A stretch of DNA of 27,242 nucleotides from Okeania sp. (GTDB lineage Bacteria; Cyanobacteriota; Cyanobacteriia; Cyanobacteriales; Microcoleaceae). The number at the start of each line of letters is the position of its first letter. The first letter of the stretch is position 1. Of this stretch, positions 1,042 through 22,425 are shown piece by piece. The stretch covers positions 1-27,242 of the forward strand of contig NZ_JAYKGW010000134.1 in NCBI RefSeq assembly GCF_035285525.1, read 5' to 3'. The notes under the pieces are model-generated. The model was not told where the DNA came from and ran no database searches. It saw only the letters and a program-made list of their open reading frames with translations. Made by a program: the position numbers and the translations under genes.

Positions 1042-1145
1042 TCAACTTCTTCCTTCTTCCTTCTTCAAATTAAATAAAAGCTAAAAAGGTTTTTTGTGTT
1101 ATAACTTTTAATAGCTACCATAGCCATAAATTTATTAAAAATCCT

Positions 1146-4100
1146 ATGATTAAATTACCAAATTATCACATAGCTAAAAAAATTTATACAGGAACCAGAA
1201 CTACAGTTTATCGTGGGTTAAATACTACTAATCAACAACCAGTAGTTATTAAAGTTATCAATAAAGAATACCCAACATTCTCGGAATTATTACAATTTCG
1301 TCATCAATATACCATTACTAGAAATCTGAATTTATCGGGAATTGTCAAACCTATCTCTCTGGAAAAATATGGTAATGGTTATGCTTTAATTATGGAAGAT
1401 ATTGGAGCAATATCTCTCAAAAAATACCTCAGTAATCAACAATTAAATCTCCCAAATTTTCTAGAACTTGCTATTTCCATAGTGAAAATATTAGAAGATT
1501 TATATCATCATCAGATTATTCATAAAGATATTAAACCTTCTAATATTGTGATTAATCCAGATACTGGAGATATTAAATTAATTGATTTTAGTATTTCTAC
1601 GTTATTACCGAGAGAAACTCAAGAAATTATTAATCCTAATGTTTTGCAAGGTACTTTGGCATATATGTCTCCTGAACAAACCGGGAGAATGAATCGAGGT
1701 ATCGACTATCGGAGTGATTTTTATTCTTTAGGTATTACCTTCTATGAAATACTCACTAATCAATTACCTTTTATTTCTAATGACCCCATAGAATTAGTTT
1801 ATTTTCATATTGCTAAAGAACCAACTCCACCTACCGAGTTAAATACAGAAATACCAGAAACAATCAATAATATTATTCGGAAAATGATGGCTAAAAATGC
1901 GGAAGAACGCTATCAGAATGCTTTTGGATTAAAACATGATTTAGAAACTTGTTTAAACTCTTGGCAAGCAATAGGAAATATTCCTATCTTTGAGTTAGGA
2001 AAACGAGATATTTCTGACCGTTTCACTATACCGGAAAAACTTTATGGTCGCCAAGAGGAAGTTGAGAATTTATTAGATGCTTTTGAAAGAGTGGCTCAAG
2101 GTGAAAGTGAAATTATGTTGGTAGCTGGTTTTTCTGGTATTGGCAAAACCGCAGTAATTAATGAAGTTCATAAACCTATAGTTCGTCAAAGAGGTTATTT
2201 TATTAAGGGTAAATTTGACCAATTTCAACGTAATATTCCTTTTAGTGCTTTGGTACAAGCTTTTCGAGATTTAATGGGAGAATTGTTGAGTGAAACTGCT
2301 AATCAATTAGAGGAATGGAAGACTAAAATTTTGGCAGCATTGGGAGTTCAGGGGCAGGTTATTATTGACGTGATTCCAGAACTAGAATTGATTATTTATC
2401 CTCAACCAGCGGTGGAAGAATTATCAGGAAGTGCAGGGGAAAATAGGTTTAATTTACTGTTTTTAAAATTCATTAAAGTTTTTACGACTAAAGAACATCC
2501 TTTGGTAATATTTTTGGATGATTTACAATGGGCAGATACGGCTTCTTTGAAGTTGATGCAGTTATTAATGAGTGAGAAAAATAGTCAACATTTATTATTG
2601 TTAGGAGCTTATCGGGATAATGAGGTAAATCCGACTCATCCTCTGATATTAACATTAGAGGAAATTGTCAAAAATTCAGCTATTGTAAATACTATTACTT
2701 TAAAACCTTTGGCATTAAGTTCAGATGTCAATCCTTTAGTAGCAGATACTCTTCATTGTTCCGAAGAAATAGCATTTCCATTGGCGGAGTTAGTATATCA
2801 AAAAACTAAAGGAAATCCATTTTTTCTGACTCAATTTCTGAAGGCATTGTACAAAGAAGAATTAATTACTTTTAATTATGAGGTGAATTATTGGGAATGC
2901 GACATTGCGAAAGTTAAGTTATTATCTTTAACTGATGATGTGGTAGAGTTTATGGCAACTCGTCTGCAAAAGTTGTCGTCGTCAACTCAAGAGGTAATGA
3001 AATTAGCAGCTTGTATCGGTAATAAATTTAATTTAGAAACTTTAGGTATTGTCTCCGAAAAGTCTTTGGGAGAAACAGCGAATAATTTATGGGAGGCATT
3101 GCAAGAAGGATTAGTTTTACCAGTGACAGAAATGTATAAGTTTTATATTTCAGAAGAGTCGAATTTGACAGATTTTCCCGGAATAAAAACTGATGCTAAT
3201 TATAGATTTTTGCATGACAGAGTACAGCAGGCAGCTTATTTGTTAATTCCCAAAGCAGAAAAACAAATAACTCATTTAAAAATCGGCAGATTATTATTAG
3301 AAAATATCCCAGAAAGTGAAAGACAAGAGAGAATTTTTGATATTGTTAATCAGTTAAATTATGGAGTAAATTTAATCTCAGATTCTAGGGAACGAGAACA
3401 ACTGGCAGAGTTAAATTTAATGGCGGGAAAGAAGGCAAAAGTTTCTACTGCTTATATGGCTGCAATTAATTATTTCACTTTTGGTTTAGAGTTATTGCCA
3501 GAAAATAGTTGGCAAATAAAATACAATTTAACTCTGGATATATATGTAGAAATGATAGAAGCAGAATATTTAACAACTAATTTTGAAAGGTCAGTTGATT
3601 TAGCAGAAATTGTCTTACAAAAAACCAAAAATATAATAGATAAGGTGAAAGTATATGAGCTAAAAATTCAAATTTATGTAGCTAAACTTGAGTTAAATAC
3701 AGCTATAGAGGTAGGACTTCAGGTACTCGAAATTATGGAAATTAGTTTGGTAGAATCTTGTCCTCCTATTGAAGTAATTGAAAATTTAGCTAACCTGCCA
3801 GAAATGACCGATCAAAACAAGCTGGGAGCTATGAGAATTTTAGTTGCTCTGATATCGCCAGTTTATTTTTTAAATTCTCCACTACTTTCACAAATAATTT
3901 TTACTATGATTTCTTTGTCACTCCAGTATGGTAATTCTACCTATTCAGCCTATGGATATGTTTTAAATGGATTATTTTTGTGTGGAATAATGTCAGAATT
4001 TGAGTCTGGATATTGCTATGGCAAACTAGCATTAAATTTACTAGAAAAATTTAATACTAAAGAATTAAAATCAAGAATCTTGATGGTTTTTAATGGTAAT

Positions 4101-6479
4101 GTTCGACATTGGCGAGAACATTATCGAGTTACGTGCAAACCTTTAGTAGAAGCAATTGAAGTAGGTTTATCTACAGGAGATATTGAATATGCTAGCTATG
4201 CAGTATATGACTATATTAATGCTGTACTGGCAATGGGAGAAAATTTAGAATCTCTGAGTAAAAAGCAAAGTAATTATGTGCAGTTAATGCAAAATCTTAA
4301 GCAGGAACATTCAACTAATTGTGTGAAAATTCAATGGCAGACAGTATTAAATCTTTTAGATAAATCTGAAAATAGTTTCCAACTAATAGGTACGGCTTTT
4401 GATGAAACCAAAATGTTACCAATTTTTAGGGATTCAAAAAATGCCATCCTCCTGTTTTATACCTATTTATATAAAGGTAAATTACTATATCTTTTTCAAC
4501 ACTCTGAAGAAGCTATTCAAGCTTTTAGTATGGCAGAAAAATATATAGATTCAGTAGCAGGTATGCTGATAGTTGCCCAACATAATTTCTATTATTCTTT
4601 AGCATTATTAGAATTTGTTAGACTCAAATCTTGGCAAAATCAAAATAATAATAATTCTTGGTTAAAAAAAGTAGAAATTAATCAGAAAAAGATGGAAATT
4701 TGGGCGCATCATGCTCCCATGAATTATTTACATAAATTTTATCTCGTAGAAGCAGAAAAACATCGGGTACTTCATAACTATCTCCAAGCAATAGAATTTT
4801 ATGAACAAGCGATCGCGATCGCTACAGAGAATGAATATATTCACGAAGTTGCTATCGCTAACGAACTGGCAGCGAAATTTTACTTAGAGTGGAATAAGGA
4901 AACTATTGCCCAAGCATACCTAATTAAAGCTTACTACGCTTATGCTCAGTGGGGAGCAGTTGCTAAACTAAAATACCTGGAAAAATGCTACGGGGATATA
5001 CTGAAACCTCTACAACAAGAATCTAATTTGACTTCTAGTTTAACTACCGATACTGTCACATATACAAGTAGCAATACTTCTTTAGTGCTTGACTTCAGTA
5101 GTTTAATCAAAGTAACTCAAGCTATTTCTGGTGAAATTAAACTAGAGAATTTACTATCGGTTTTAATGCGAGCTACTCTAGAAAATGCTGGTGCGGAAAA
5201 AGGTTATTTAATCCTTCCTCAAGGAGAAAATTGGGTGATAGAAGCTGAAGCTATTCGTAATAGTAATCTAGGGGAAGAATTACAATTAATATCAAAACAT
5301 TCTCTTCCTCTTGAGTCTACAAATAAACTTCCTAATTCTCTCATTTATTATGTGGCACGTACTCAACAAACTGTGGTACTTGATGATGCTGCTAATGAAG
5401 CTAAGTTTGCTGCCGATTCTTACATTCAAAATTATCAACCCAAAAGTATTTTATGTATTCCTATTATTAATCTTTCTCAATTTATTGGCATATTATATCT
5501 CGAAAATAATCTGACAGCAGGAGCTTTTACTAGGGAGCGATTAGAAATATTAAAAGTTTTAACTACTCAAGCAGCTTTCTCTTTAGAAAATGCCAGACTT
5601 TATCAAGAATCTCAGAACTATGCTCAACAATTAGAGGAAACACAACTACAACTTGTGCAAAATGAAAAAATGGCATCTATTGGGCAATTAACTACCGGAG
5701 TTGCTCACGAAATTAACAATCCAGTAGGTTTTATTTCTGGCAATTTAGCTCATGCTTCTGATTATATCCAAAATATGATTAATCTTTTGAACCTCTACCG
5801 TCAAACTTTCCCTCAACCAGGAGTAAAAATTTTAGAGGAAATGGAGGCAATGGAGTTGGATTATCTGATGGAAGACTTACCTAACATGATTGATTCTATG
5901 AAAGAAGGTATCGAGCGGATTACTGAAATTAGCAAATCGATGCGTACTTTCTCTCGCGGGGATCAGACAAGTAAGATATCTTTTAATATCCAGGATGGCA
6001 TAAATAGCACTTTATTAATTCTCAAACATCGACTCAAAGCTAACAATAATCGTCCGGAAATTCAAATAGTAAAAAACTATGGAAATTTGCCAACAATAAG
6101 TTGTTATCCCGGACAATTAAATCAAGTTTTTATGAATTTAATTGCTAATGCTATTGATGCTTTAGAAGAAAGTAATATGGGGAAAACTTTTACGGAAATT
6201 AAAACAGCACCAAATCAGATTGCTATTACTACAGAAATTGACCAAGAAAAACAGCAGGCAATTATTAAAATAAGAGATAATGGTATGGGTATGAGTGAGG
6301 AGGTGAAAAAGAAAGTATTTGGTCATTTATTTACGACTAAACCAGTAGGAAAAGGAACTGGTTTAGGTTTATCAATTTCTCAGCAAATAGTAGAAGAAAA
6401 ACATGGAGGTAAAATTAGTTGTATTTCTGAGTTAGGAAAAGGAACTGAGTTTATTATTAGTTTACCAATTAATGTATAA
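1146..6479 (+). CDS. Multidomain dual kinase: Ser/Thr kinase, AAA_16/STAND NTPase, TPR-like helical region, GAF, histidine kinase (HstK-like), paralogue 1
   Basis: Uninterrupted 1777-aa ORF. STK motifs: VVIKV Lys, catalytic loop HKDIKPSN (1521-1544), DFS (1584-1592), SPE. NTPase: Walker A GFSGIGKT (2127-2150), Walker B VIFLDD (~2505-2522). GAF at ~5088-5600. HK: H-box AHEINNP (His codon 5706-5708), N-box NLIANAIDA, G1 DNGMGM (6276-6293), F-box FGHLFTTK, G2 GKGTGLGLS. No receiver domain. Confidence 0.95.
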   Translation: MIKLPNYHIAKKIYTGTRTTVYRGLNTTNQQPVVIKVINKEYPTFSELLQFRHQYTITRNLNLSGIVKPISLEKYGNGYALIMEDIGAISLKKYLSNQQLNLPNFLELAISIVKILEDLYHHQIIHKDIKPSNIVINPDTGDIKLIDFSISTLLPRETQEIINPNVLQGTLAYMSPEQTGRMNRGIDYRSDFYSLGITFYEILTNQLPFISNDPIELVYFHIAKEPTPPTELNTEIPETINNIIRKMMAKNAEERYQNAFGLKHDLETCLNSWQAIGNIPIFELGKRDISDRFTIPEKLYGRQEEVENLLDAFERVAQGESEIMLVAGFSGIGKTAVINEVHKPIVRQRGYFIKGKFDQFQRNIPFSALVQAFRDLMGELLSETANQLEEWKTKILAALGVQGQVIIDVIPELELIIYPQPAVEELSGSAGENRFNLLFLKFIKVFTTKEHPLVIFLDDLQWADTASLKLMQLLMSEKNSQHLLLLGAYRDNEVNPTHPLILTLEEIVKNSAIVNTITLKPLALSSDVNPLVADTLHCSEEIAFPLAELVYQKTKGNPFFLTQFLKALYKEELITFNYEVNYWECDIAKVKLLSLTDDVVEFMATRLQKLSSSTQEVMKLAACIGNKFNLETLGIVSEKSLGETANNLWEALQEGLVLPVTEMYKFYISEESNLTDFPGIKTDANYRFLHDRVQQAAYLLIPKAEKQITHLKIGRLLLENIPESERQERIFDIVNQLNYGVNLISDSREREQLAELNLMAGKKAKVSTAYMAAINYFTFGLELLPENSWQIKYNLTLDIYVEMIEAEYLTTNFERSVDLAEIVLQKTKNIIDKVKVYELKIQIYVAKLELNTAIEVGLQVLEIMEISLVESCPPIEVIENLANLPEMTDQNKLGAMRILVALISPVYFLNSPLLSQIIFTMISLSLQYGNSTYSAYGYVLNGLFLCGIMSEFESGYCYGKLALNLLEKFNTKELKSRILMVFNGNVRHWREHYRVTCKPLVEAIEVGLSTGDIEYASYAVYDYINAVLAMGENLESLSKKQSNYVQLMQNLKQEHSTNCVKIQWQTVLNLLDKSENSFQLIGTAFDETKMLPIFRDSKNAILLFYTYLYKGKLLYLFQHSEEAIQAFSMAEKYIDSVAGMLIVAQHNFYYSLALLEFVRLKSWQNQNNNNSWLKKVEINQKKMEIWAHHAPMNYLHKFYLVEAEKHRVLHNYLQAIEFYEQAIAIATENEYIHEVAIANELAAKFYLEWNKETIAQAYLIKAYYAYAQWGAVAKLKYLEKCYGDILKPLQQESNLTSSLTTDTVTYTSSNTSLVLDFSSLIKVTQAISGEIKLENLLSVLMRATLENAGAEKGYLILPQGENWVIEAEAIRNSNLGEELQLISKHSLPLESTNKLPNSLIYYVARTQQTVVLDDAANEAKFAADSYIQNYQPKSILCIPIINLSQFIGILYLENNLTAGAFTRERLEILKVLTTQAAFSLENARLYQESQNYAQQLEETQLQLVQNEKMASIGQLTTGVAHEINNPVGFISGNLAHASDYIQNMINLLNLYRQTFPQPGVKILEEMEAMELDYLMEDLPNMIDSMKEGIERITEISKSMRTFSRGDQTSKISFNIQDGINSTLLILKHRLKANNNRPEIQIVKNYGNLPTISCYPGQLNQVFMNLIANAIDALEESNMGKTFTEIKTAPNQIAITTEIDQEKQQAIIKIRDNGMGMSEEVKKKVFGHLFTTKPVGKGTGLGLSISQQIVEEKHGGKISCISELGKGTEFIISLPINV

Positions 6480-6728
6480 TATGAGGCAAAATCAGTGCAG
6501 CAGAGCAAAATTTTAGCTGCGAAAGCAACGACAGAACTAGCAGAGGGGACTGAATGAAAAAAAAGTGTTAAATTAGTAAAAACAAAACTGTTTTCTTGTG
6601 TTATAACTTCTATAATTCTTATATAGTAATCTGATTTTAGTTGTATTCAAAATTTCAAAGCTTTTTAGAGAACAGGCGGGAGTTACGGTACGGTTCCCCA
6701 GAAATCGGAGAGAAATCAGTTTTTTTAT

Positions 6729-6839
6729 TAGACATCTCCAAAAATAAAAAATTAAATCAATTCTTATCCATAAATTATCAATTATTTCTTCCTGTTCCCT
6801 GTTCCCTGTTAAGCGTTCCCTCTTTTCTGGAGATGTCTA
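6729..6839. repeat. 111-bp palindromic element (12-bp perfect terminal inverted repeats) enclosing a heptamer tract
   Basis: TAGACATCTCCA (6729-6740) and TGGAGATGTCTA (6828-6839) are exact reverse complements. The interior contains CCTGTTCCCTGTTCCCTGTT (6791-6810). The element lies in the ~260 nt that are present upstream of paralogue 2 and absent upstream of paralogue 1. Confidence 0.7.
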
Positions 6840-6907
6840 TTGACTTTTTTGATGTGTGACAACCTATGCGCGGATTACTATAAAACCATAAATTTATTAA
6901 AAATCCT

Positions 6908-9900
6908 ATGATTAAATTACCAAATTATCACATAACTCAACAAATTTATACAGGAACCACAACTACGGTTTATCGTGGATTAAATACCACGAATCAAAAA
7001 CCAGTAGTTATCAAATTTCTCAATAAAGAATACCCGACCTTTTCTGATTTATTACAATTTCGGCATCAATATACTATTACTAAAAATCTGAATTTACCAG
7101 GGACTGTTAAACCTATTTCCCTAGAAAAATATGGTAATGGTTATGCCTTCATTATGGAAGATATTGGGGCAGTCTCCCTCAAGACATACCTAAATCATCA
7201 AAAATTAAGTCTGCAAAGTTTTCTGGAACTGGCGATTTCCATAGTTGAAATATTAGAAGATTTATATCATCATCAAATTATTCATAAAGATATTAAACCT
7301 TCTAATATTGTGATTAATCCAGAGACTGGAGATATTAGATTAATTGACTTTAGTATTTCTACATTATTACCTAGAGAAACTCAAGAAATTGTCAATCCTA
7401 ATGTCCTCGAAGGTACTCTGGCATATATTTCCCCAGAACAAACAGGTAGAATGAATCGAGGTATTGACTACCGGAGTGATTTTTATTCTTTAGGGATTAC
7501 ATTCTATGAAATCCTCGCCAACCAATTACCTTTTATTTCTAATGACCCCCTAGAATTAGTTTATTTTCATATTGCTAAAGAACCAATTCCACCTACGGAT
7601 ATAAATACAGAAATACCAGAAATGGTAAATAATATTATTCTGAAAATGATGGCGAAAAATGCGGAGGAACGCTATCAGAATGCTTTTGGATTAAAGCACG
7701 ATTTAGAAACTTGTTTAAAATATTGGCAAGAAACCAACAATATTCCTTTATTTGAGTTAGGAAAACGGGATATTTCTGACCGTTTTAGTATACCTGAAAA
7801 ACTCTATGGTCGTCAAACAGAAGTTCAGAATTTATTAGATGCTTTTGAAAGAGTGGCTCAAGGAGAGAGTGAAATTATGTTAGTAGCGGGTTTTTCAGGT
7901 ATTGGAAAAACTGCAGTTATTAATGAAGTTCATAAACCAATAGTTCGTCAACGGGGTTATTTTATTAAGGGTAAGTTTGACCAATTTCAACGGAATATTC
8001 CTTTTAATGCTTTTGTACAAGCTTTTCGGGATTTAATGGGAGAATTATTGAGTGAAACGGCTAATCAATTACAGGAATGGAAGACTAAAATTCTCTCAGT
8101 ATTAGGTGAAAATGGGCAGGTTATTATTGAAGTGATTCCGGAACTAGAGTTGATTATTTCTCCTCAACCACAGGTAGAAAAATTATCAGGAAGTGCAGCG
8201 GAAAATAGGTTTAATTTATTGTTTTTAAATTTGATTAAAGTCTTTGCGACTCAAGAACATCCTTTGGTAATATTTTTGGATGATTTACAGTGGGCAGATA
8301 CGGCTTCTTTGAGGTTGATACAGTTGTTAATGAGTGAGAAAAATAGTCAACATTTATTATTATTAGGAGCTTATCGGGATAATGAGGTAAATCCGACTCA
8401 TCCTCTGATATTAACATTAGCAGAAATTGTGAAAAGTTCGGCTATTGTTAATACTATTACTTTAGAACCTCTGGAACTAATTTTTGATGTAAACCCTTTA
8501 GTAGCGGATACTCTTCATTGTCATCAAGAAATAGCATTTCCTTTGGCGGAATTAGTAGATCAAAAGACTAAAGGAAATCCTTTTTTTGTTACTCAATTTC
8601 TCAAAGCATTGTACAAGGAAAAGTTAATTACTTTTAATTATGAGGTGAGTTATTGGGAGTGTGATATTGCTCAGGTAAAGTTATTTTCTCTTACAGATGA
8701 TGTGGTAGAGTTTATGGCAACTCGTCTCCAAAAATTGTCATCTGAAACTCAGGAGGTAATGAAATTAGGAGCTTGTATTGGTAATAAGTTTAATTTAGAA
8801 ACTTTAGCTATTGTTTCAGAAAAGTCTGTGGCAGAAACAGCTAATAATTTGTGGTCGGCATTGCAAGAAGGGTTGGTTTTACCAGTGACAGAAGTCTATA
8901 AATTTTATACTTCAGAAGAGTCTAGTTTTACAGATTTTCAAGCCATAGAAACTGATGCTAATTATAGATTTTTGCACGACCGGGTACAGCAAGCTGCTTA
9001 TTTGTTAATACCAGAAGAGGAAAAACAAATTACTCATTTAAAAATCGGGCGATTATTATTAGAAAATATTCCAGAAAATCAAAGGCAAGAAAGAATTTTT
9101 GATATTGTTAATCAGTTAAATTATGGGGTAGATTTAATTTCTGATTCCACAGAAAGAGAACAACTGGCGGAGTTAAATTTAATGGCTGGGAAAAAGGCTA
9201 AAGTTTCAACCGCTTATAATGCTACGGTGAATTATCTAAATATAGGTAGAGAGTTATTAACAGCTAATAGTTGGGAAACGAACTACGAATTAACATTAGC
9301 TTTGTATGTAGAATCAGCAGAAATAAGATATTTAATAGGTGAATATGAAGAAATGGAAAATTTAGCTGAAGTTGTACAACAGCAAGCTAAAATTTTATTA
9401 GATAAAGTTCCAGTTTACATAACAAAAATTCAAGCTGAATTTGCTCAATATCAATTTCTTGAAGGTCTCGATATGGCAACAAAAATTCTTCAAGATATGG
9501 GATTAAAATTATTCCCTAGAACAACAGAAGAAGAGTTGTTTTCTGGTATTCAAGAATTACAGTCATTTCTGGGCGATCGCTCCCCTGAAGACTTCAAACA
9601 ACTTCCAGAAATGACAAACCCGGAAAAGTTAGTCTTAGTGCAAATTCTAGAATTAATAGGAGCAGCAGCTTTTATTAGTGGGTCTCCGTTGTGGTCTAGT
9701 ATAGTTTTTGCCCTGATTACTTTATCTGTCGAATGGGGAAATACATCTGCTTCTGCTTATGGATACACTTGTTATGGAATAATGTTGTGGATCAAAGGAG
9801 AAATTGGAGTTGCTTATCAATTATCTCAGGTAACTTATGGGGTATTTGAAACTTATGGTGGAGATGCTATTAAAGGAGCAGTAGTAGCAGATATACACCT

Positions 9901-12322
9901 TCGTCATTGGCAAGAACATTTGCGAAATAGTTTACCTTCATTCCTCAAATATTATACTCTTGCTTTATCCAGGGGAGATTTTGAATTTGCTGGTTACAAT
10001 CTCTTGTTTCACTATTTTCATGCCTTTTATAGTGGTGAGGAATTAACAGAACTTGTTCAGAAACTTAATGATGCTATTGATACTGTGATTCAAATGAAGC
10101 AAGAAAGTACCGTGAGACGGTTGCAAATGAATCAACAAACTATTCTAAATTTGATTAGCTCGGAAAACCCTGGTGTCTTAGTTGGAGAAGCTTTTAATAA
10201 TACAGAAACACAACCCCAAGATCAAATACTGGTATATCAAAATTTGCACAAACTTTATCTATATTATCTGTTTGGTAACTATCAGGAAGCTCTCAAAATT
10301 TCTCTGGCAACACAACCAAATGTCAATTTAGTTACTTCTCAGTATAGTCAGGTACTTTTATATTTTTATGGTTGCTTGATTTTTCTTGCTCTCTACAATG
10401 ACGCTTCTGAGGAACAACAGCAGCAGTGGTTAGCAGATGTCACCTCTAAACAAGAACAGATGGAAATTTGGGCGCACCATGCTCCCATGAATTATTTACA
10501 TAAATTTTATCTCGTAGAAGCAGAAAAACATCGGGTACTTCATAACTATGTGGAAGCAATAGAACTCTATGAACAAGCGATCGCTCTCGCTACAGAAAGC
10601 AAATATATTCAAGAGGCTGCTCTCGCTAACGAACTCGCAGCGAAATTTTACTTAGAGTGGAACAAAGAAACTATTGCCCAAGCATACCTAATTAAAGCTT
10701 ACTACGCTTATGCTCAGTGGGGAGCATTTACCAAACTTAAACACCTGGAAACTTGCTACGGTGAGTTACTTAAATCCCTGCAACAAGAGCCTAATTTTAT
10801 TTGTAGTTTAACTAATGAAACCGTTACATATACAAGTAGTAATACTTCTTTAGTGCTTGATTTCAGCAGTTTAATTAAAGCTACTCAAGCTATTTCTGGA
10901 GAAATTCAATTAGAGAATTTACTCTCGGTTTTGATGCGAGTTACTTTAGAAAATGCTGGTGCTGAAAAAGGTTATTTAATCCTTCCTCAAGGAGAAAATT
11001 GGGTCATAGAAGCTGAAGCTATTCGTAATAGCAACCTTGAAGAAGAATTGCAACTAACAGCCAAACAATCTCTTCCTCTTGACTCCACAAATAAACTTCC
11101 TAATTCCCTCATTTATTATGTGGCGCGTACTCAACAAACTGTGGTACTTAATGATGCTAATAATGAAACCAAGTTTGCTGCCGATCCTTACATTCAAAAC
11201 TATCAACCTAAAAGTATTTTATGTATTCCTATTATTAATCTTTCTCAATTTATTGGCATACTATATCTAGAAAATAATCTCACAGCAGGAGCTTTTACTA
11301 GCGATCGTTTAGAAGTTTTAAAAGTCCTCACTACTCAAGCTGCTTTCTCTCTAGAAAATGCCAACCTTTATGAAAATTTATCTCTGGCTAAAAATCAACT
11401 TGAAGAATATAGTCATACTTTAGAGGATAAAGTTAAAGAACGCACCGAAGAATTAAACAAAAAAAATATATATTTATCTCAAACTCTCCAGGAACTAAAA
11501 AAGACTCAAGCTCAATTAATTCAAACCGAAAAAATGTCTAGTTTGGGAGTAATGGTAGCAGGAATTGCTCACGAAATTAATAATCCTAACAATTTTATTT
11601 ATGGCAATGTTAAGCACGCCATTGCATACAGCAAAGATTTGCTCAATTTAGTTAATTTGTACCAAGAAGAATATCCTCAACCTACAGCTAAAATAGAAGA
11701 ATTTATAGAAGAATTAGATGTAGAATTTTTAGTTAAAGATTTAGAAAAATTACTAAATTCTATGAAAATTGGGTCGGAAAGGATTAAAGAAATTGTGACA
11801 TCATTACGGAATTTTTCTAGATTAGATGAATCAGATATGAAGCCTGTAAATATCCATGAAGGTCTTGATAGCACTCTCCTAATTTTACAAAATAAACTCA
11901 AATTTCAGAGAGAAAAATCTGAACTTCAAGTAGTCAGAAATTATGGTGATTTACCCTTGGTTAATTGTTATGCTTCCCAGTTAAATCAAGTATTTATGAA
12001 TGTTATTAGTAATGCTATTGATGCTTTGGAAGAGATGAGAAAAAAGAGTAATAAATTAGAAGAACCTACGATTATAATTAGCACAGAAGCAACTAAAAAT
12101 CAGACTGTAAAAATCAAAATTTATGACAATGGTCCTAGTATTAGTCTGGAAAATCAAAATAGGATATTTGACCCATTTTTTACTACTAAACCAGTTGGCG
12201 CTGGTACAGGTTTAGGTTTATCAATTAGTTATTCAATTATTGTAGAAAAACACAATGGTAAATTAACTTGTAATTCTGCACCAGGAGAAGGGGTAGAATT
12301 TGTCATTGAGATTCCATTATAA
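6908..12322 (+). CDS. Multidomain dual kinase: Ser/Thr kinase, AAA_16/STAND NTPase, TPR-like helical region, GAF, histidine kinase (HstK-like), paralogue 2
   Basis: Uninterrupted 1804-aa ORF collinear with paralogue 1. Motifs: HKDIKPSN (7283-7306), Walker A GFSGIGKT (7889-7912), GAF ~10855-11365, H-box AHEINNP (His codon 11570-11572), N-box NVISNAIDA, G1 DNGPSI (12125-12142), F-box FDPFFTTK, G2 GAGTGLGLS. Confidence 0.95.
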   Translation: MIKLPNYHITQQIYTGTTTTVYRGLNTTNQKPVVIKFLNKEYPTFSDLLQFRHQYTITKNLNLPGTVKPISLEKYGNGYAFIMEDIGAVSLKTYLNHQKLSLQSFLELAISIVEILEDLYHHQIIHKDIKPSNIVINPETGDIRLIDFSISTLLPRETQEIVNPNVLEGTLAYISPEQTGRMNRGIDYRSDFYSLGITFYEILANQLPFISNDPLELVYFHIAKEPIPPTDINTEIPEMVNNIILKMMAKNAEERYQNAFGLKHDLETCLKYWQETNNIPLFELGKRDISDRFSIPEKLYGRQTEVQNLLDAFERVAQGESEIMLVAGFSGIGKTAVINEVHKPIVRQRGYFIKGKFDQFQRNIPFNAFVQAFRDLMGELLSETANQLQEWKTKILSVLGENGQVIIEVIPELELIISPQPQVEKLSGSAAENRFNLLFLNLIKVFATQEHPLVIFLDDLQWADTASLRLIQLLMSEKNSQHLLLLGAYRDNEVNPTHPLILTLAEIVKSSAIVNTITLEPLELIFDVNPLVADTLHCHQEIAFPLAELVDQKTKGNPFFVTQFLKALYKEKLITFNYEVSYWECDIAQVKLFSLTDDVVEFMATRLQKLSSETQEVMKLGACIGNKFNLETLAIVSEKSVAETANNLWSALQEGLVLPVTEVYKFYTSEESSFTDFQAIETDANYRFLHDRVQQAAYLLIPEEEKQITHLKIGRLLLENIPENQRQERIFDIVNQLNYGVDLISDSTEREQLAELNLMAGKKAKVSTAYNATVNYLNIGRELLTANSWETNYELTLALYVESAEIRYLIGEYEEMENLAEVVQQQAKILLDKVPVYITKIQAEFAQYQFLEGLDMATKILQDMGLKLFPRTTEEELFSGIQELQSFLGDRSPEDFKQLPEMTNPEKLVLVQILELIGAAAFISGSPLWSSIVFALITLSVEWGNTSASAYGYTCYGIMLWIKGEIGVAYQLSQVTYGVFETYGGDAIKGAVVADIHLRHWQEHLRNSLPSFLKYYTLALSRGDFEFAGYNLLFHYFHAFYSGEELTELVQKLNDAIDTVIQMKQESTVRRLQMNQQTILNLISSENPGVLVGEAFNNTETQPQDQILVYQNLHKLYLYYLFGNYQEALKISLATQPNVNLVTSQYSQVLLYFYGCLIFLALYNDASEEQQQQWLADVTSKQEQMEIWAHHAPMNYLHKFYLVEAEKHRVLHNYVEAIELYEQAIALATESKYIQEAALANELAAKFYLEWNKETIAQAYLIKAYYAYAQWGAFTKLKHLETCYGELLKSLQQEPNFICSLTNETVTYTSSNTSLVLDFSSLIKATQAISGEIQLENLLSVLMRVTLENAGAEKGYLILPQGENWVIEAEAIRNSNLEEELQLTAKQSLPLDSTNKLPNSLIYYVARTQQTVVLNDANNETKFAADPYIQNYQPKSILCIPIINLSQFIGILYLENNLTAGAFTSDRLEVLKVLTTQAAFSLENANLYENLSLAKNQLEEYSHTLEDKVKERTEELNKKNIYLSQTLQELKKTQAQLIQTEKMSSLGVMVAGIAHEINNPNNFIYGNVKHAIAYSKDLLNLVNLYQEEYPQPTAKIEEFIEELDVEFLVKDLEKLLNSMKIGSERIKEIVTSLRNFSRLDESDMKPVNIHEGLDSTLLILQNKLKFQREKSELQVVRNYGDLPLVNCYASQLNQVFMNVISNAIDALEEMRKKSNKLEEPTIIISTEATKNQTVKIKIYDNGPSISLENQNRIFDPFFTTKPVGAGTGLGLSISYSIIVEKHNGKLTCNSAPGEGVEFVIEIPL

Positions 12323-12750: not shown

Positions 12751-12811
12751 CCTATTCCCTATTCCCTATTTCCTTTTCCCTGTTCCCTGTTCCCTGTTCC
12801 CTGTTCCCTAT
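12751..12811 (+). repeat. STRR-type heptamer tract (TTCCCTA/TTCCCTG) ending 5 nt before the cheR-like start codon
   Basis: CCTATTCCCTATTCCCTATTTCCTTTTCCCTGTTCCCTGTTCCCTGTTCCCTGTTCCCTA. It is preceded by ATAACTG-type heptamers at 12724-12745. Confidence 0.9.
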
Positions 12812-12816
12812 CAAGA

Positions 12817-14367
12817 ATGAATCCAACTTTATTACAAAACTTTATTAAATTAATTGCTAACTATACAGGTCTGCATATTCGAGAGCCAGATTATAACAGT
12901 TTTTGCCATAAAATATTGATGCGCATCAGCTCGCTAAAATACTCTTCTCCAGAAGAATATTATCAATTATTAATAAGCCAAGATCAAACAAGTAAAAATG
13001 AATGGGAAAAACTGATAATATTGTTAACCGTAACTGAAACTTATTTCTTTCGAGACCAGGAACAGTTAGGGTTACTTAAAAATGTAATTTTGCCAGAAAT
13101 TATTAAGTTTAAAATAGCATCTAACCAAAAAAAAATAAGTATTTGGAGTGCAGGTTGTTCTACAGGAGAAGAACCTTACTCCTTAGCAATTATAATTCAA
13201 GAATTAATTCCTGGCTGGCAAGAATGGGATATTTTAATTTTAGGAACAGATATTAATAAAGCAGCACTAACTAAGGCAAAACAAGGTATTTATAGTGATT
13301 GGTCGTTTCGTTTATTAGATGAGTGGCTCAAAAGGAAATATTTTTATCAATTTCAGGGAGAATGGCAACTAAATCCAATAGTTAAAAATATGGTCAGTTT
13401 TAGTAATATAAATTTAGTTAAAGATAGTTTTCCTAAGTATATTGATTTGATTTTATGTCGCAATGTTTTTATCTATTTTGAACCTAAGTATACTTCATTA
13501 GTGATGCAAAAATTTTATAATTCTCTCCTCAAGGGAGGGTATCTAATAACAGGTCATGCTGAGTTATTTGGTCAAACAATGAGTAAATTTAGGGTGAAAT
13601 TTTTCCCGAAATCTTTGGTTTATCAGCGCGATGAAGAACAGCTACATGAAAATTATTTAGTTGATACTTCACCCATACTTCCCAAAAAGACGATACCTAT
13701 AACTAAAAGTTTTAAACGTTCATTTCTTAATTCAATATCTGAAAGCAAAGTCTCTACTAATTATAATATTCAGGATAACGATCAAAAACAAATATTATTT
13801 GATTGTAACCAGAAAATTAATCTAAATCACAGAAATGAAACAGCTAGAAAATTAGAACAAAAAAATAGTGATTTGCCACCTAATAAATCGGATAAATTGT
13901 TGTTGGAAGCAGCAGAATTATTTGCAGCTAAAGCTTATACTAATGCGATTAAAAAAGTAGAAAAATTTATGAGTCTAAATCCCCAAAGTTTTAGGGGATA
14001 TAAATTACTAGCTCGATTATATGCCAATGTAGGTAAATATGACCGTGCTATTTTTTATTGTAATCAAGCAATAAAAGTAAATGCTTCTTCATTAGAGCCT
14101 TATTATTTGTTAGTTAATATAGCAGAAGAACAAGGAGATATAGAAGGAGCTAAAATTTTTTTAAAGCGCATAATTTATCTTTACCCACAAGAAGTACCTG
14201 CTTATATAGAACTTGGTTCACTATATGCAGCAGAAAAAAATATAATTCGAGCAAAAAAGATGAAAAATACAGCTTTAGAACTCCTAAAAAATTTACCTGC
14301 TGATGATATGATAGAGTACAGAGGAGGAATTAAAGTTTCTGAATTGATTAAGTATTTGGAAGCATAA
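12817..14367 (+). CDS. cheR: CheR-type protein-glutamate O-methyltransferase with C-terminal TPR domain
   Basis: 516-aa ORF with CheR hallmarks: TETYFFRD, IWSAGCSTGEEPYSLAI (SAM-binding G-rich loop), GTDIN, LILCRNVFIYF. The C-terminal ~170 aa is TPR-like (..AKAYTNAIKKVEKFMSLNPQSFRGYKLLARLYANVGKYDRAIFYCNQAIKVN..). Confidence 0.9.
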   Translation: MNPTLLQNFIKLIANYTGLHIREPDYNSFCHKILMRISSLKYSSPEEYYQLLISQDQTSKNEWEKLIILLTVTETYFFRDQEQLGLLKNVILPEIIKFKIASNQKKISIWSAGCSTGEEPYSLAIIIQELIPGWQEWDILILGTDINKAALTKAKQGIYSDWSFRLLDEWLKRKYFYQFQGEWQLNPIVKNMVSFSNINLVKDSFPKYIDLILCRNVFIYFEPKYTSLVMQKFYNSLLKGGYLITGHAELFGQTMSKFRVKFFPKSLVYQRDEEQLHENYLVDTSPILPKKTIPITKSFKRSFLNSISESKVSTNYNIQDNDQKQILFDCNQKINLNHRNETARKLEQKNSDLPPNKSDKLLLEAAELFAAKAYTNAIKKVEKFMSLNPQSFRGYKLLARLYANVGKYDRAIFYCNQAIKVNASSLEPYYLLVNIAEEQGDIEGAKIFLKRIIYLYPQEVPAYIELGSLYAAEKNIIRAKKMKNTALELLKNLPADDMIEYRGGIKVSELIKYLEA

Positions 14368-14423: not shown

Positions 14424-14469
14424 CCTATTACCTATTACCTATTACCTATTCCCTGTTTCCTACTCCCTA
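14424..14469 (+). repeat. Heptamer tract (CCTATTA/CCTATTC variants)
   Basis: CCTATTACCTATTACCTATTACCTATTCCCTGTTTCCTACTCCCTA, read directly from the sequence. Confidence 0.85.
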
Positions 14470-14602: not shown

Positions 14603-14610
14603 CTTTTTCC

Positions 14611-14650
14611 TCCATACCTATTCCCTCCATACCTATTCCCTCCATACCTA
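14611..14650 (+). repeat. 15-nt tandem repeat (TCCATACCTATTCCC, about 2.7 copies) ending 2 nt before the cheW-like start codon
   Basis: Copies at 14611-14625 and 14626-14640, plus a partial copy at 14641-14650. The ATG is at 14653. Confidence 0.9.
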
Positions 14651-14652
14651 AA

Positions 14653-15738
14653 ATGCAAAATAAATCATATCTGATATTTTCACATAATAACTGTTTTTAT
14701 GGACTAGAAACATTGTCTGTTAAAGAAGTTTTTTTACTGCCAGAAATAACGGCGATCGCGGAAATGCCAGACCCGATTATTGGTATAATTAATCTGAGAG
14801 GAAATGTATTACCTGTAATAGACTTCAATCTGCGTCTGGGGTATCAGCAACAAGAATATTCTTTGACAGATAATCTAGTTGTGATTAACTCAGAATCATC
14901 CACTGTTGGCATCATTGTGAATCAAGTTTATGAAGTCAAAGAAATTCCTACTACAGAAATCAAAATAATTACAGAAATATATAGTCAAGAAAGCCAGGAA
15001 AATCATAAATTAAATTTAGTTGCAGGTATAGCCAAATTAGAAGAAAAATTAATTACTTTATTATCTACTAAAAATCTGATTAGATACACAGAAAAACTAG
15101 CTGATTTTTCTATACATGACTGGAATAATACAGATGATTTAGTCAAAGAAAATTATTTAGAAAAACCTCAACATCAAGAATATTCCAAATTAATATTTTG
15201 CCCCAATGCTACTCCACAAGAAAGAACTATTTTTCAAGAGCGAGCCAAAAATTTGAGAGAAACTCAAAGTGAAGATTTTAGTAACTTAATTCCTCTAGCA
15301 GTAATTGGTTTAAATGAAGAATATTTTGCTATGAATTTAGCAGTAGTAAAAGAGTTTACTAATATTAATAAAGTTACTCCTATTCCTTGTACTCCCAAAC
15401 ATATTTTTGGCAATATAAATTTACGGGGTGAAATTGTTACTTTGTTGGATATTCGAGGTGTTTTAAATATGCAGACTCAGACAACAACAACCCAAAAAAA
15501 TCAAGCCTTAATATTTGACTTAGATGATTTAGTTGCTGGTATTATAGTAGATGAAATATTTGATGTTATTTATCTCAATCCTTTAGATATTAAGTCGATT
15601 CCTGCTATGATTAATCATTCTCAAGCTCACAGTGAGTATTTATTAGGAACTGCTATTTATCGAGAAAAGATGATGAGCATCATCAATTTTCATAAAATTA
15701 TTACCAATAAAGAATTAATTGTGGAAGAAGAAATTTAA
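14653..15738 (+). CDS. cheW: Tandem two-domain CheW-like coupling protein
   Basis: 361-aa ORF with two CheW-like modules (~aa 3-150 and ~205-355). Each carries the ..V.E....I..P.....GIINLRG.V.PV/LLDxR..L pattern (IIGIINLRGNVLPVIDFNLRLG; IFGNINLRGEIVTLLDIRGVLN). Confidence 0.85.
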   Translation: MQNKSYLIFSHNNCFYGLETLSVKEVFLLPEITAIAEMPDPIIGIINLRGNVLPVIDFNLRLGYQQQEYSLTDNLVVINSESSTVGIIVNQVYEVKEIPTTEIKIITEIYSQESQENHKLNLVAGIAKLEEKLITLLSTKNLIRYTEKLADFSIHDWNNTDDLVKENYLEKPQHQEYSKLIFCPNATPQERTIFQERAKNLRETQSEDFSNLIPLAVIGLNEEYFAMNLAVVKEFTNINKVTPIPCTPKHIFGNINLRGEIVTLLDIRGVLNMQTQTTTTQKNQALIFDLDDLVAGIIVDEIFDVIYLNPLDIKSIPAMINHSQAHSEYLLGTAIYREKMMSIINFHKIITNKELIVEEEI

Positions 15739-19034: not shown

Positions 19035-20063
19035 TTAATTAACTACTCCTCTTGCTGTTTCTAACCAACTATCATATTTTTCTTGATTATTTTCTACCCA
19101 CTCTTGAGCATGACGTAAAATATCTTCTACTTTATCCTCACCATCTTTAATACGTAAACTTTCAGCATTCATATCTTCTATAGTAATTTCTACTAACTCA
19201 AACCACTTTTTGGCAACTGGGTTAATTTCTAAGAATTTTTTATTAGCAACTATACGCTGTTGAAGTATAGGAAATCCCAAATTTTTGCCGTCTACTAATG
19301 TATCTTTTTCAGTCAAATTTCCCATATCTTTTGGCAAAGATGTAAAAGGAACTTCTAAGGAAACTACATCTTTCTCTGGCTTTAAAACTGTAGATATCCA
19401 GTGGGGATTATAAGCATAATAAAGAATAGGTTTTCCTTCATTATAGCGAGTAATTGCATCTGCTAATAAAATTTCATATTGTCCTTGATCCTGTTCTACT
19501 GTATCTTCTAGTTCATAAGCTTTGAGATGATGATTTATTACTAATTCACAAGACCAACCAGGATTACAACCAACTAAGTTTGCTTTACCATCTTTATCGG
19601 AGTCAAAAAGTTGGGCTATTTCTGGATTTTTTAATTGTTCAATATTAGTAATGTTATATTTATCGGCTGTTTTTTTATCAATTTCATATTTTTGTATTCC
19701 ATCAGGAGTTAATATTCCAACTTTCTCTAATTTTTCTTCACCACCAGAATTTTCAAAGTATTCTTTGTGTTGCGGGTCATAATAAACGGTACTATATTCT
19801 AAGTCTCCATTAGCAAGAGAAATATAAATTGGAGGATATTCAATTTGTTTGGGTTCTTCAACTTTATAGCCTAATTTTTCTAGACCTATATTGACAATAT
19901 AAGTTTGAAATAATTCTTGTATCCAGGTACTATTAGCAGTACGAATAGTAACTGTTTCTGATTGATCGGGAACCGTATTATCAACTTGTTGGCAAGAAGT
20001 GAAAATTATTAATATAGAAGTTAGGATTGCTCCTAAAATTATTTTGACGGTTTTATTGTTCAT
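19035..20063 (-). CDS. proX: Glycine betaine/proline betaine ABC transporter substrate-binding lipoprotein (ProX/OpuAC family), paralogue A
   Basis: The ORF in the track is 19035-20102. The start is placed at the internal Met (MNNKTVKIILGAILTSILIIFTSCQQ) by alignment with paralogue B. The signal peptide has a Cys lipobox-like site. CNPGWSCE and ..ITRYNEGKPILYYAYNPHWIS..VPFTSLP..GFP..IVANKKFLEINPVAKKWFE..DMNAESL.. match the E. coli ProX sequence as I recall it. Confidence 0.85.
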   Translation of the reverse strand: MNNKTVKIILGAILTSILIIFTSCQQVDNTVPDQSETVTIRTANSTWIQELFQTYIVNIGLEKLGYKVEEPKQIEYPPIYISLANGDLEYSTVYYDPQHKEYFENSGGEEKLEKVGILTPDGIQKYEIDKKTADKYNITNIEQLKNPEIAQLFDSDKDGKANLVGCNPGWSCELVINHHLKAYELEDTVEQDQGQYEILLADAITRYNEGKPILYYAYNPHWISTVLKPEKDVVSLEVPFTSLPKDMGNLTEKDTLVDGKNLGFPILQQRIVANKKFLEINPVAKKWFELVEITIEDMNAESLRIKDGEDKVEDILRHAQEWVENNQEKYDSWLETARGVVN

Positions 20064-20572
20064 TATTTTTATTTTTAGATTAATAAATTTTTCGGATAAC
20101 AATTTTGTTCATAATTTGGTTTTTTTTTGCTGGTAATAAACAGATAAATTTATATCAGTTATTAGCTCTCTTTTTTGCTACAAAATATAGAATTTTAATG
20201 AGAACTTGCTGATTAAAGATAAAAGTCAAGATAAGATAGTTAAGGTTAGTGAGATTTTTATATTCAATTTGTCTCCTAGTTACTGGCTCTTATTTGCTTC
20301 AAAATACTGAATTTTCTGCTCAAATTAAAGAATATTTATTCACAGAAAATAACGTAAATTTTGCCTGTTTTTCCTATCTCGGCATCCCCCCCCATCTCGG
20401 CGTCCTACCGACAGCAACCAATTTTTTCAGCAAACCCTAATTACCAAAGAATTAATAATTAAATAATTAAATAACTCAGGTTTAAAGTCTTCCCTTTCAA
20501 GGGGAAAAAAATAAATTTTTTCTTTTTATTCAATCCTCTTCCTTTTAGGGAGAGGTAATTATCAATTATCCA

Positions 20573-21586
20573 TTATTGAACTGCTTGTCTAGCTATTTCT
20601 AACCAACTATCATATTTTTGTTGATTATTTTTTACCCACTCTTGAGCATGACCTAAAATATCTTCTGGTTTATCTTCACCCTCTTTAATGCGTAAACTTT
20701 CAGCATTCATATCTGCAACAGAAATTTCTACTAATTCAAACCACTTTTTCGCAACTGGATTAGCTTCTAGAAATTTTTTATTAGCTACAATACCCTGTTT
20801 ACTTCTAGGAAAACCCAGATTTTTTCCATCTAATAATGTATCTTTTTCCGTCAAATTTCCCATTTCTTTTGGTAAAGATGTAAAAGGAACTTCTAACCAA
20901 ATAACATCTTTCTCTGGCTGTAAAACTGCAGATATCCAGTGGGGATTATAAGCATAATAAATAATAGATTCACCTTTATTATAACGAGTAATCGCATCTG
21001 CTAAAAGCACTGTATATTGACCTCGATTTTGTTCGACAGTATTTTGTAATTTATAAGCTTCGATTTGATGATCTATCGCCAGTTCACAACCCCAACCAGG
21101 ATTACAACCAACTAAATTTGCTTTACCATCTTTATCAGAGTCAAAAAGTTGAGCTATTTCTGGATTTTTAAATTGTTCAATATTAGTAATTTTATATTTA
21201 TCGGCTGTTTTTTTATCAATTTGATATCCTTGCATTCCTGGAGGTACTAAAGTTCCAACTCCCTCTAATTTTTCTTCACCACCAGCATTTTCAAAGAATT
21301 TATTGTGCCCTGGTTGATAATAAATAACACTATAGTCTAAGTCTCCATTTGCTACAGAAATATAAAGTGCTGGATAATCAATTTCTTTTGGTTTTTCTAT
21401 CTGATAACCAAGTTTTTCTAGACCTATATTAACAATATAAGTTTGAAATGATTCTTCTATCCAGTTACTATGAGCTGTCCGAAGAGTTAAAGTTTGGGAA
21501 TTTTGAACTGGTTGACAGGAGGCAAAAATTATTAAAAAGCTGGTTAAGATTGTTCCTAGAATTATTTTTAGAGATTTTTGTTTCAT
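20573..21586 (-). CDS. proX: Glycine betaine/proline betaine ABC transporter substrate-binding lipoprotein (ProX/OpuAC family), paralogue B
   Basis: 337-aa ORF, roughly 75-80% identical to paralogue A by eye. Features: MKQKSLKIILGTILTSFLIIFASCQP signal/lipobox and a CNPGWGCE motif. Confidence 0.9.
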   Translation of the reverse strand: MKQKSLKIILGTILTSFLIIFASCQPVQNSQTLTLRTAHSNWIEESFQTYIVNIGLEKLGYQIEKPKEIDYPALYISVANGDLDYSVIYYQPGHNKFFENAGGEEKLEGVGTLVPPGMQGYQIDKKTADKYKITNIEQFKNPEIAQLFDSDKDGKANLVGCNPGWGCELAIDHQIEAYKLQNTVEQNRGQYTVLLADAITRYNKGESIIYYAYNPHWISAVLQPEKDVIWLEVPFTSLPKEMGNLTEKDTLLDGKNLGFPRSKQGIVANKKFLEANPVAKKWFELVEISVADMNAESLRIKEGEDKPEDILGHAQEWVKNNQQKYDSWLEIARQAVQ

Positions 21587-22383: not shown

Positions 22384-22390
22384 CAGCTTT

Positions 22391-22425
22391 TCAGTTATCA
22401 GTTATCAGTTATCAGTTATCAGTTA
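22391..22425 (+). repeat. STRR-type heptamer tract (CAGTTAT, about 5 copies) immediately after the rplI stop
   Basis: TCAGTTATCAGTTATCAGTTATCAGTTATCAGTTA, read directly from the sequence. Confidence 0.9.

Follow-up and report, generated by a model that had tools for sequence, protein, structure and literature searches.

The 'dual protein kinases' of filamentous cyanobacteria, known as cbSTKIII kinases or the HstK family, were surveyed by Zhang et al. in 2007 (PMC2176072), who read the incongruent trees of their serine/threonine kinase (STK), GAF and HisKA domains as domain shuffling and described adjacent duplicated pairs, such as Alr0709/Alr0710. Here we analyze a tandem pair of genes of this family, g1 and g2, located on a contig of 27,242 nucleotides (nt), hereafter the window, that belongs to one metagenome-assembled genome (MAG) of Okeania sp. 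(Microcoleaceae, marine filamentous cyanobacteria). A first-pass annotation of this DNA had described both genes as paralogues with homogenized signaling domains and diverged sensor and output blocks, and had put forward patchy gene conversion, together with diversifying selection or module replacement, to account for the pattern. Our results reveal that g1 is a mosaic of four blocks with three phylogenetic origins, well-defined junctions and purifying selection on all parts, from which we infer an order of events, a recombination mechanism and a functional outcome. The reading that we favor, with a probability of roughly 0.72, is that g1 is a lineage-specific tandem duplicate in which the second block (B, a TPR-like solenoid) and the fourth (D, the histidine kinase (HK) transmitter) were subsequently replaced by recombination with distant paralogues.

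Four blocks and three origins in g1

The two genes were compared through a codon-based global MAFFT alignment scanned in 30-codon windows, with synonymous (dS) and nonsynonymous (dN) divergence estimated by the Nei-Gojobori method. The alignment resolves into four consecutive blocks, A to D (Table 1). Windows in block A show 80-96% nt and 73-100% amino acid (aa) identity, dropping to 40-69% nt and 13-53% aa in block B, returning to 78-97% nt in block C (4692-5593) and falling again to 49-70% nt over the rest of the gene, block D. Overall identity amounts to 88% aa and 88% nt in A, 88% aa and 90% nt in C, and 50% aa and 62% nt in D. Synonymous divergence follows the same partition, with dS values of 0.43 in A (dN 0.061, dN/dS 0.14) and 0.35 in C (dN 0.058), against a saturated 1.28 in B (dN 0.68) and 1.15 in D (5594-6476; dN 0.45), and dN/dS stays at 0.14-0.17 across A and C. 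Uniform divergence along the genes is hence not seen: synonymous differences are heterogeneous among the four blocks (chi2=91, df 3, P=1.3e-19), and an unsupervised maximum-likelihood partition into four segments places their starts at 1146, 3456, 4692 and 5604, with mismatch fractions of 0.116, 0.482, 0.105 and 0.392.

The four-block mosaic and the boundaries that the first-pass annotation had drawn by eye are thus borne out by the alignment, the dS profile and the change points at 3456, 4692 and 5604, with some refinements of detail. The last block had been started at 5594, which is nearly the right place but out of frame, the in-frame start being 5592. Differences in the STK and nucleoside triphosphatase (NTPase) parts had been called mostly synonymous; synonymous changes do form the majority in block A, albeit a moderate one of about 60% (160 synonymous vs 108 other). 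The 25-30 additional coiled-coil residues attributed to the second copy correspond to a linker before the DHp domain that is 32 residues longer in g2 in the pairwise alignment, the extra segment being present in the family alignment as well, and to a net excess of 27 aa in the g2 protein.

The origin of each block was addressed through block-wise BLAST searches against 120 full-length family members and neighbor-joining trees with 100 bootstraps on 52 of them. In what follows, P-numbers (e.g. P0009) designate family-member proteins and L-numbers designate genomic loci, with L001-L011 harboring the orthologues of g2. The resulting block-wise phylogenies, which the first-pass annotation had proposed as a check, are incongruent among A, B, C and D. 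In the block A tree g1 lies inside the g2 clade (bootstrap 100), and in the block C tree it is sister to g2 (bootstrap 87); its B block groups with P0029/P0030/P0044/P0070 (bootstrap 100) and its D block with P0065/P0119/P0024 (bootstrap 96). Pairwise identities follow these placements. The B block of g1 shows 53-55% aa identity to the P0029/P0030/P0044/P0070/P0121 group vs 31-35% to g2 and its 11 orthologues, and the D block shows 79-81% aa identity to P0065/P0119/P0140/P0024-type relatives vs 50% to the D block of g2. At the nucleotide level, D is 85.3% identical to that of P0119 (L081:12180-13055), with dS 0.47, dN 0.106 and dN/dS 0.23, and searches with D alone recovered an 81% aa match in a Dapis GAF-HK protein (P0140) and matches of 71-74% in REC-HK hybrids of Okeania, Dapis and Trichodesmium. 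The dS of 0.47 matches that between g2 and its orthologues (0.43-0.53), as would be expected if the donor was a P0119-type paralogue of this lineage itself or a closely related one. None of the 120 sampled members unites a g1-type B with a g1-type D, since the D blocks of the B group reach only 46-48% and the B blocks of the D group 34-41%. In quartets with each orthologue, informative sites favor the (g1,g2) pairing over the two alternatives in block A (36-52 vs 17-29 vs 10-19) and in block C (20-39 vs 4-10 vs 2-6).

Of the two processes invoked earlier for the diverged blocks, module replacement is therefore upheld in both by the incongruent block trees (bootstraps of 96-100) and by the restriction of dS saturation to B and D. 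In situ diversifying selection is contradicted, as the B and D blocks of g1 group with other subfamilies rather than forming a long branch from the g2 clade.

Sequence identity changes abruptly at the three junctions. The A/B junction falls right after LNLxAGxKAKxSTAY, at nt 3455/3456. The B/C junction lies within NQKK/MEIWAHHAPMNYLHK, at nt 4689-4695, where mismatch frequency shifts within a few bases from about 50% to 1 mismatch in 90 nt. The C/D junction maps within QAAFSLENA/RLYQ, with g1 tracking g2 up to ~5595 and P0119 from ~5600 onwards, setting the crossover at ~5586-5604. In the family alignment all three junctions sit on the most conserved, family-invariant motifs (KAKxSTAY, WAxHAPxN and SLENAxLY), and the identity that g1 shares there with the available relatives spans only some 8-22 nt. 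Either homologous recombination on short identity or microhomology-mediated joining might have generated them.

Orthologues of g2 were identified in a scan of one genome per species, for which 80 loci were fetched. Eleven genomes each yielded a single close relative of g2: Dapis M172, M126 and M229; Okeania SIO2F4, SIO3I5, SIO1I7, SIO3B5, SIO2B3 and SIO2C9; and Trichodesmium erythraeum IMS101 and MAG_R02. In every block these 11 genes run collinear with g2, at aa identities of 73-87% (A), 61-79% (B), 76-83% (C) and 73-78% (D), with unsaturated dS of 0.38-0.75 in each block and of 0.45-0.55 for the nearest orthologues. No second match to any block of g1 or g2 was detected at the 11 orthologue loci, 6 of which include a full 10 kb of upstream flank, and no full-length orthologue of g1 was found among 5.8 billion proteins, the best non-self match being g2 itself (67%). 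This makes g2, collinear with 11 single-copy genes, the orthologous member of the pair, and g1, devoid of a full-length orthologue, specific to this lineage. The two genes also share their non-coding leader: nt 1124-1145 are identical to 6886-6907 in 22 of 22 positions, right before both ATGs, nt 1067-1110 are 80% identical to 6570-6612, and nt 1067-1138 show 78% identity with the 73 nt that immediately precede the L006 orthologue. The duplicated unit therefore took in the leader; no similarity was found between the 3' flanks of g1 and g2.

Taken together, these results suggest a path in which the resident gene and its leader would have been duplicated in tandem in this lineage, roughly when the species split (dS ~0.4), giving rise to g1. 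The 412-aa solenoid cassette would then have been swapped in from a P0029/P0044-related lineage, and a P0119/P0065-like lineage would have supplied the transmitter as a whole (linker, DHp and catalytic domain), with crossovers at KAKxSTAY, WAxHAPxN and SLENAxLY, where short homology would have been on offer and the chimera would remain in frame and functional, and with purifying selection acting on all parts thereafter. The product would preserve three parts of g2, its STK, NTPase switch and GAF pocket, combined with another solenoid surface, for input or partner, and another linker, DHp and CA domain; the earlier proposal of a shared core with a different sensor surface and output is a reasonable one. 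Residues of the DHp domain set both homodimer and response-regulator specificity, as established by Laub and colleagues, and exchange of the whole module would thus be a one-step means of insulating the duplicate from its parent, with the new DHp blocking g1-g2 heterodimers and redirecting phosphotransfer to a different response regulator. The window itself encodes no response regulator.

Alternative explanations for the mosaic

The notion that A and C are homogenized by patchy gene conversion is not supported. Their dS (0.35-0.43) is nearly at the level seen between g2 and its orthologues in other species (0.43-0.55), and a GENECONV-type permutation test on the longest run of concordant polymorphic sites was not significant in A (P=0.22) or in C (P=0.18). 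Clustering of synonymous differences within A and C yielded P=0.04-0.37 depending on window size and was not robust. Both blocks thus retain the age of a duplication at about species-split time, and 'homogenized' is not an apt description of them. The previously noted stretch of 1 mismatch in 90 nt at the B/C junction was reproduced exactly; it differs from each orthologue at 7-14 positions, and a 90-nt window as clean anywhere in A and C has P=0.09 under codon permutation. It is no more than suggestive of a short, recent conversion tract ending where homology ends. No other genome was seen to carry a g1 copy, and post-speciation duplication would account for the closeness of g1 and g2 in quartet sites without conversion.

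Conversion could nonetheless have acted on a larger scale if g1 were an old, divergent paralogue lying upstream of g2, whose A and C segments had been overwritten through ectopic conversion with g2 as the source and whose B and D were its original remnants; this corresponds to the homogenized signaling domains of the first-pass annotation. Tandem direct repeats are good substrates for conversion, the sister relationship of g1 and g2 in A and C is what such overwriting would produce, the near-identical stretch stops exactly at the end of homology, as a conversion tract would, and tandem arrays of divergent family members are known at L062 and L081. The ancestor postulated in this way would, however, have been a chimera itself, as g1-type B and g1-type D never occur together in sampled proteins. 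Related loci show a single family gene each, also at the six whose upstream flank spans a full 10 kb; both copies have the non-coding leader in common as well; and the dS of A and C, like the non-significant tract tests, speaks against any homogenization since approximately the time of speciation. We consider overwriting of an old neighbor unlikely.

Several observations weigh against duplication followed by replacement. It requires two recombination events, exactly as many as the overwriting of an old neighbor, and sequence alone cannot fully separate the two orders of events. In the block A tree g1 is sister to g2 alone in only 38 of 100 bootstraps, and several 180-nt windows of this block put g2 closer to L001 or L004 than to g1; accordingly, either the duplication dates back to roughly the species splits or A went through a recombination history of its own. 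Searches with B alone returned only fragments and matches of at most 55% aa, placing the origin of this block solely at the subfamily level, and no donor of D above 85% nt was found, the identification reaching the donor clade rather than the donor gene. Finally, the contig stems from a single MAG assembly, and g1 was seen only once, as one member on one contig.

This last circumstance would also befit an assembly chimera, with paths from paralogues or co-occurring strains joined at k-mers shared in conserved motifs, and the junctions do lie on the most conserved motifs, where graph mis-joins would arise. Such an artifact would nevertheless require three in-register mis-joins within one gene, and past the junctions g1 matches nothing known exactly, with C 10% off g2 and D 15% off its nearest relative. 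The two genes share an exact repeat of 72 nt, at which a path swap would, as we reason, generate a cycle and not a linear order. Moreover, a similar B mosaic with the same junctions recurs in independent assemblies (P0018, assembled independently on 3 contigs, and P0009 on 2), and an artifactual origin of g1 appears quite improbable. In-place divergence of B and D following a plain duplication, driven by relaxed constraint or diversifying selection and without exchange, fares worse still. The sensor repeat arrays of STAND proteins typically evolve fast, and among g2 orthologues B does evolve roughly twice as fast as A (dN/dS 0.23-0.34 vs 0.14-0.19). Yet synonymous sites are saturated in B and D and unsaturated in A and C of the same gene pair, the block boundaries are knife-sharp, and the affinity of B and D (80-81% aa and 85% nt for the latter) to other subfamilies, at bootstraps of 100 and 96, exceeds by far their identity with g2. 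Within the limits of these tools, in-place divergence is refuted by both the dS pattern and the block phylogenies.

Protein architecture, the solenoid cassette and the gene neighborhood

Table 1. Coordinates of g1, g2 and associated features in the window
Feature	Position (nt)	Strand	Basis
g1, chimeric paralogue, 1777 aa	1146-6479	+	Open reading frame list, intact catalytic motifs
g2, orthologous 'parental-type' copy, 1804 aa	6908-12322	+	Collinearity with 11 genomes
g1 5' leader, homologous to leaders of g2 and the L006 orthologue	1067-1145	+	
g1 block A: STK, STAND-like NTPase and first helices; g2-clade origin	1146-3455	+	
g1 block B: probably replaced TPR-like solenoid cassette, 412 aa	3456-4691	+	
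g1 block C: last solenoid helices, linker and GAF; g2-clade origin	4692-5591	+	
g1 block D: probably replaced HK transmitter with short linker, DHp (H-box ~nt 5706) and CA domain	5592-6479	+	
g1 Pkinase domain	1164-1937	+	Pfam
g1 AAA_16 domain	2037-2600	+	Pfam
g1 GAF domain	5142-5585	+	Pfam
g1 HATPase_c domain	6114-6470	+	Pfam
g2 block A	6908-9217	+	Alignment to g1
g2 block B	9218-10459	+	Alignment to g1
g2 block C	10460-11362	+	Alignment to g1
g2 block D	11363-12322	+	Alignment to g1
Near-identical stretch at the g1 B/C junction, matching 10460-10549	4692-4781	+	1 difference from g2
g1-g2 intergenic spacer, with ~115-nt dispersed repeat at 6727-6842	6480-6907	.	Similarity to other loci

Both proteins display the same domain order, consisting of Pkinase, AAA_16 NTPase, TPR-like solenoid, GAF and histidine kinase. 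This architecture is common to all 120 matches listed (53-67% identity; the best 120 of 8000 scored), many of them under the NCBI names 'trifunctional serine/threonine-protein kinase/ATP-binding protein/sensor histidine kinase' or 'multi-sensor signal transduction multi-kinase', and g1 and g2 are soluble members of the HstK/cbSTKIII family. Profile searches with Pfam and NCBIfam yielded no whole-protein equivalog, but identified Pkinase at aa 7-264 (E=5e-38 in g1, 2e-36 in g2), AAA_16 at aa 298-485 (E=1e-43 and 3e-42), GAF (PF01590) at aa 1333-1480 of g1 (E=2e-14) and 1335-1482 of g2 (E=1e-14), and HATPase_c (E=2e-22 and 9e-22). STAND-specific Pfam models stayed below threshold (nSTAND6 with 21 bits vs a cut-off of 27.7, nSTAND_NTPase5 with 16 vs 34). 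HisKA also falls below the Pfam cut-off in both proteins, yet each retains an H-box (AHEINNP) along with N, G1 and G2 boxes. With the STK motifs VVIK, HKDIKPSN, DFS and SPE and the Walker-type motifs GFSGIGKT and VIFLDD of the NTPase also kept, each of the three enzymatic domains retains its catalytic motifs in both g1 and g2.

The G1 (DxGxG) ATP-lid box is non-canonical in transmitters of the g2 clade. That of g2 itself (12125-12139) reads DNGPS; among L001-L011, Asn replaces Asp in 9 of 11 (NNGPS, NNGTS or NNGPN), L003 has the canonical DNGPG, and the transmitter of g1 carries a canonical DNGMG. Judging from these motifs, the output modules of g1 and g2 may differ not only in partner specificity but also in how they handle ATP. 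In T. erythraeum IMS101, the g2 orthologue contains an in-frame TAG at codon 671 (L007 12011-12013; NC_008312 ~3.2877 Mb) in an otherwise full-length and well conserved frame, and may be a pseudogene or a split gene.

Between AAA_16 and GAF both proteins contain a long stretch without Pfam annotation. For block B no specific Pfam or NCBIfam family was identified, and Pfam called no TPR within it above threshold, with sub-threshold matches only at the B/C border. AlphaFold2 (AF2) models built with family alignments for aa 701-1252 of g1 and 701-1254 of g2 reached a pLDDT of 94.7 and 93.0 and a pTM of 0.90 and 0.88, respectively. Both models are all-helical, comprising 27-29 helices arranged as helix-turn-helix pairs in a near-identical layout and zero strands, and their top Foldseek matches in the PDB are all TPR proteins (CTR9, Naa15, TTC7B, Ski3, LGN, OGT, APC/C subunits and Tom70), with E-values of 6e-6 to 1e-4 and TM-scores of 0.2-0.4, which are low as is usual for superhelices. 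Even though Pfam calls no TPR, the TPR fold ascribed to block B in the first-pass annotation is hence supported, at the level of predicted structure, as a TPR-like alpha-solenoid in both copies. By analogy with STAND proteins, this solenoid may act as a ligand or partner sensor and control NTPase-dependent oligomerization.

Block B also behaves as a repeatedly exchanged cassette elsewhere in the family, which broadens the picture of GAF and HisKA shuffling among cbSTKIII kinases drawn by Zhang et al. in 2007. In A, C and D, the three proteins P0009, P0013 and P0018 are members of the g2 clade, but they carry a third type of B, which is 87-92% identical among them, 28-32% identical to the B block of g2 and at most 46% identical to anything else. 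P0009 is a positional orthologue, sharing a downstream NTP_transferase gene with the g2-type genes of L002, L005 and L010 (Okeania SIO2F4, SIO1I7 and SIO2B3), and P0018 is encoded by a solitary gene. Compared with P0006, P0009 has an identity of 90-100% as far as KAKxSTAY, drops to 17-47% over B and recovers to 83-93% at WAxHAPxN and beyond, making it an independent swap of B at the same two junctions as in g1. Distances in B also disagree with those in A among g2-type orthologues; in A, for instance, L008 has its closest relative in L002 (0.07), which no longer holds in B (0.19), and the B block of g2 is nearest to that of L008. One orthologous and partly syntenic lineage that spans Okeania, Dapis and Trichodesmium thus contains at least three mutually unrelated B types (<35% aa), namely the g2 type, the P0009/P0013/P0018 type and the g1 type, whose distribution departs from the tree of the flanking domains.

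A decidedly speculative extension, which we regard as doubtful, is that the ~410-aa solenoid bounded by KAKxSTAY and WAxHAPxN undergoes recurrent selected cassette exchange or maintains a long-term balancing polymorphism of the sensor surface. Exchange or balanced polymorphism of such sensor blocks is typical of NLR/STAND immune receptors, and if it did apply here it would hint at a fast-evolving biotic ligand rather than a metabolite. Separately, a role in a defense system was considered and is without support, as PADLOC matches on g1 and g2 are confined to the STK domain (PD-T4-6, mad6 and MkoA).

Tandem arrays of family members were also observed at L062 (9995-15310 and 15770-21637; Okeania SIO1I7) and L081 (2115-7529 and 7653-13058; P01_H01_bin.35). 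These arrays are mosaic as well, with N-termini 70-97% identical, B blocks 25-45% identical and solenoid and GAF parts 20-50% identical. The first 180 aa of the L062 pair are 92-97% identical, and would be a better site in which to seek real gene conversion.

The window contains several classes of repeats. The contig starts with six tandem copies of a 68-nt unit (nt 1-402; 93% matches) with GC-rich inverted ends (GGGGCGGGTCTA...TAGACCCGCCCC); this hairpin-forming array has a GC content of 0.44 vs ~0.32 elsewhere, lacks spacers, is not CRISPR-like and may be the reason for the contig end. The dispersed element in the g1-g2 spacer has 82-89% matches at unrelated positions in L062 (89%), L005, L006 and L003, and a 106-nt element upstream of g1 (704-809) has 78-84% matches in L004, L009, L005 and L011; both are possibly repeats of Okeania and Trichodesmium akin to miniature inverted-repeat transposable elements (MITE-like). 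Heptanucleotide tandem arrays of CCTATTC type (12751-12811, 14424-14469, 14609-14650 and 25648-25684) and of AGTTATC (22378-22425) occupy intergenic positions just 5' of CheR, CheW and other genes, and resemble the STRR (short tandemly repeated repetitive) heptamers of filamentous cyanobacteria. A 147-nt unit repeated 1.9 times (22469-22743; 85% matches) lies in the AT-rich spacer between the L9 gene and a gene for a PPC-domain protein. A scan of the window against Rfam returned no matches.

Directly 3' of g2, the window encodes a CheR methyltransferase-TPR fusion (12817-14367) and a double-CheW protein (14653-15738), with no methyl-accepting chemotaxis protein, CheA or CheY in the window. Neither the CheR-TPR nor the CheW-CheW gene occurs at any of the 80 loci fetched, making the linkage specific to this genome, and with synteny kept in 0 of 80 loci the idea of a functional kinase-chemotaxis module was dropped. 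A second tandem pair of paralogues encodes OpuAC-type, glycine-betaine-binding lipoprotein-like proteins on the minus strand (19035-20102 and 20573-21586) that are 75% identical over 341 residues, without an obvious mosaic.

Comparison with known signaling systems

The HstK family provides the closest parallel to this locus. Anabaena Alr2258 (HstK) and the adjacent, co-transcribed Alr0709/Alr0710 (Pkn40/Pkn41) share with g1 and g2 their architecture, the arrangement in tandem pairs and the NCBI name found on database matches. Domain shuffling has been known in this family since 2007 and is established for histidine kinases, and current concepts are left unchanged by our results. Relative to the 2007 survey, however, shuffling is here resolved to nucleotide junctions in a young pair, three distinct subfamilies can be named as sources of a single gene, and the main unit exchanged is a ~410-aa solenoid that was not analyzed in that survey. 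As a young and clean natural experiment, the g1/g2 pair would document the emergence of a new signaling pathway from an existing giant sensor kinase, and the seams at KAKxSTAY, WAxHAPxN and SLENAxLY, as natural splice points, could guide the engineering of chimeric sensors in a poorly studied family.

Similarities and differences can also be drawn with other systems. Like the STAND NTPases (MalT, AfsR-type regulators and Avs), g1 and g2 combine a P-loop NTPase with a subsequent long, TPR-like solenoid that is their most variable part; unlike in those proteins, the solenoid is internal, followed by GAF and HK and not C-terminal, and nSTAND models match only below threshold. As in ectopic gene conversion and concerted evolution, the genes are tandem direct repeats whose conserved blocks are mutual closest relatives, but the absence of significant tracts and the dS of A and C indicate no ongoing homogenization.

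The shuffling of HK domains after duplication and the rewiring of DHp specificity are reportedly treated by Alm, Huang and Arkin in 2006 (PLoS Comput Biol) and by Capra and Laub in 2012 (Annu Rev Microbiol), and homodimer specificity among paralogues is said to be the subject of work by Ashenberg et al. in 2011. The acquisition of a new sensory module and a new transmitter by a duplicate is the expected route to an insulated new pathway, and g1 conforms to it as a lineage-specific duplicate that would have gained both. The solenoid of g1 appears to have been replaced like for like, with the same fold and length, and not by a domain of a new type. Insulation, in turn, is usually described through point substitutions in DHp, whereas in g1 the linker, DHp and CA domain appear to have been swapped as one block, suggesting a one-step route to insulation in which dimerization and response-regulator specificity change together.

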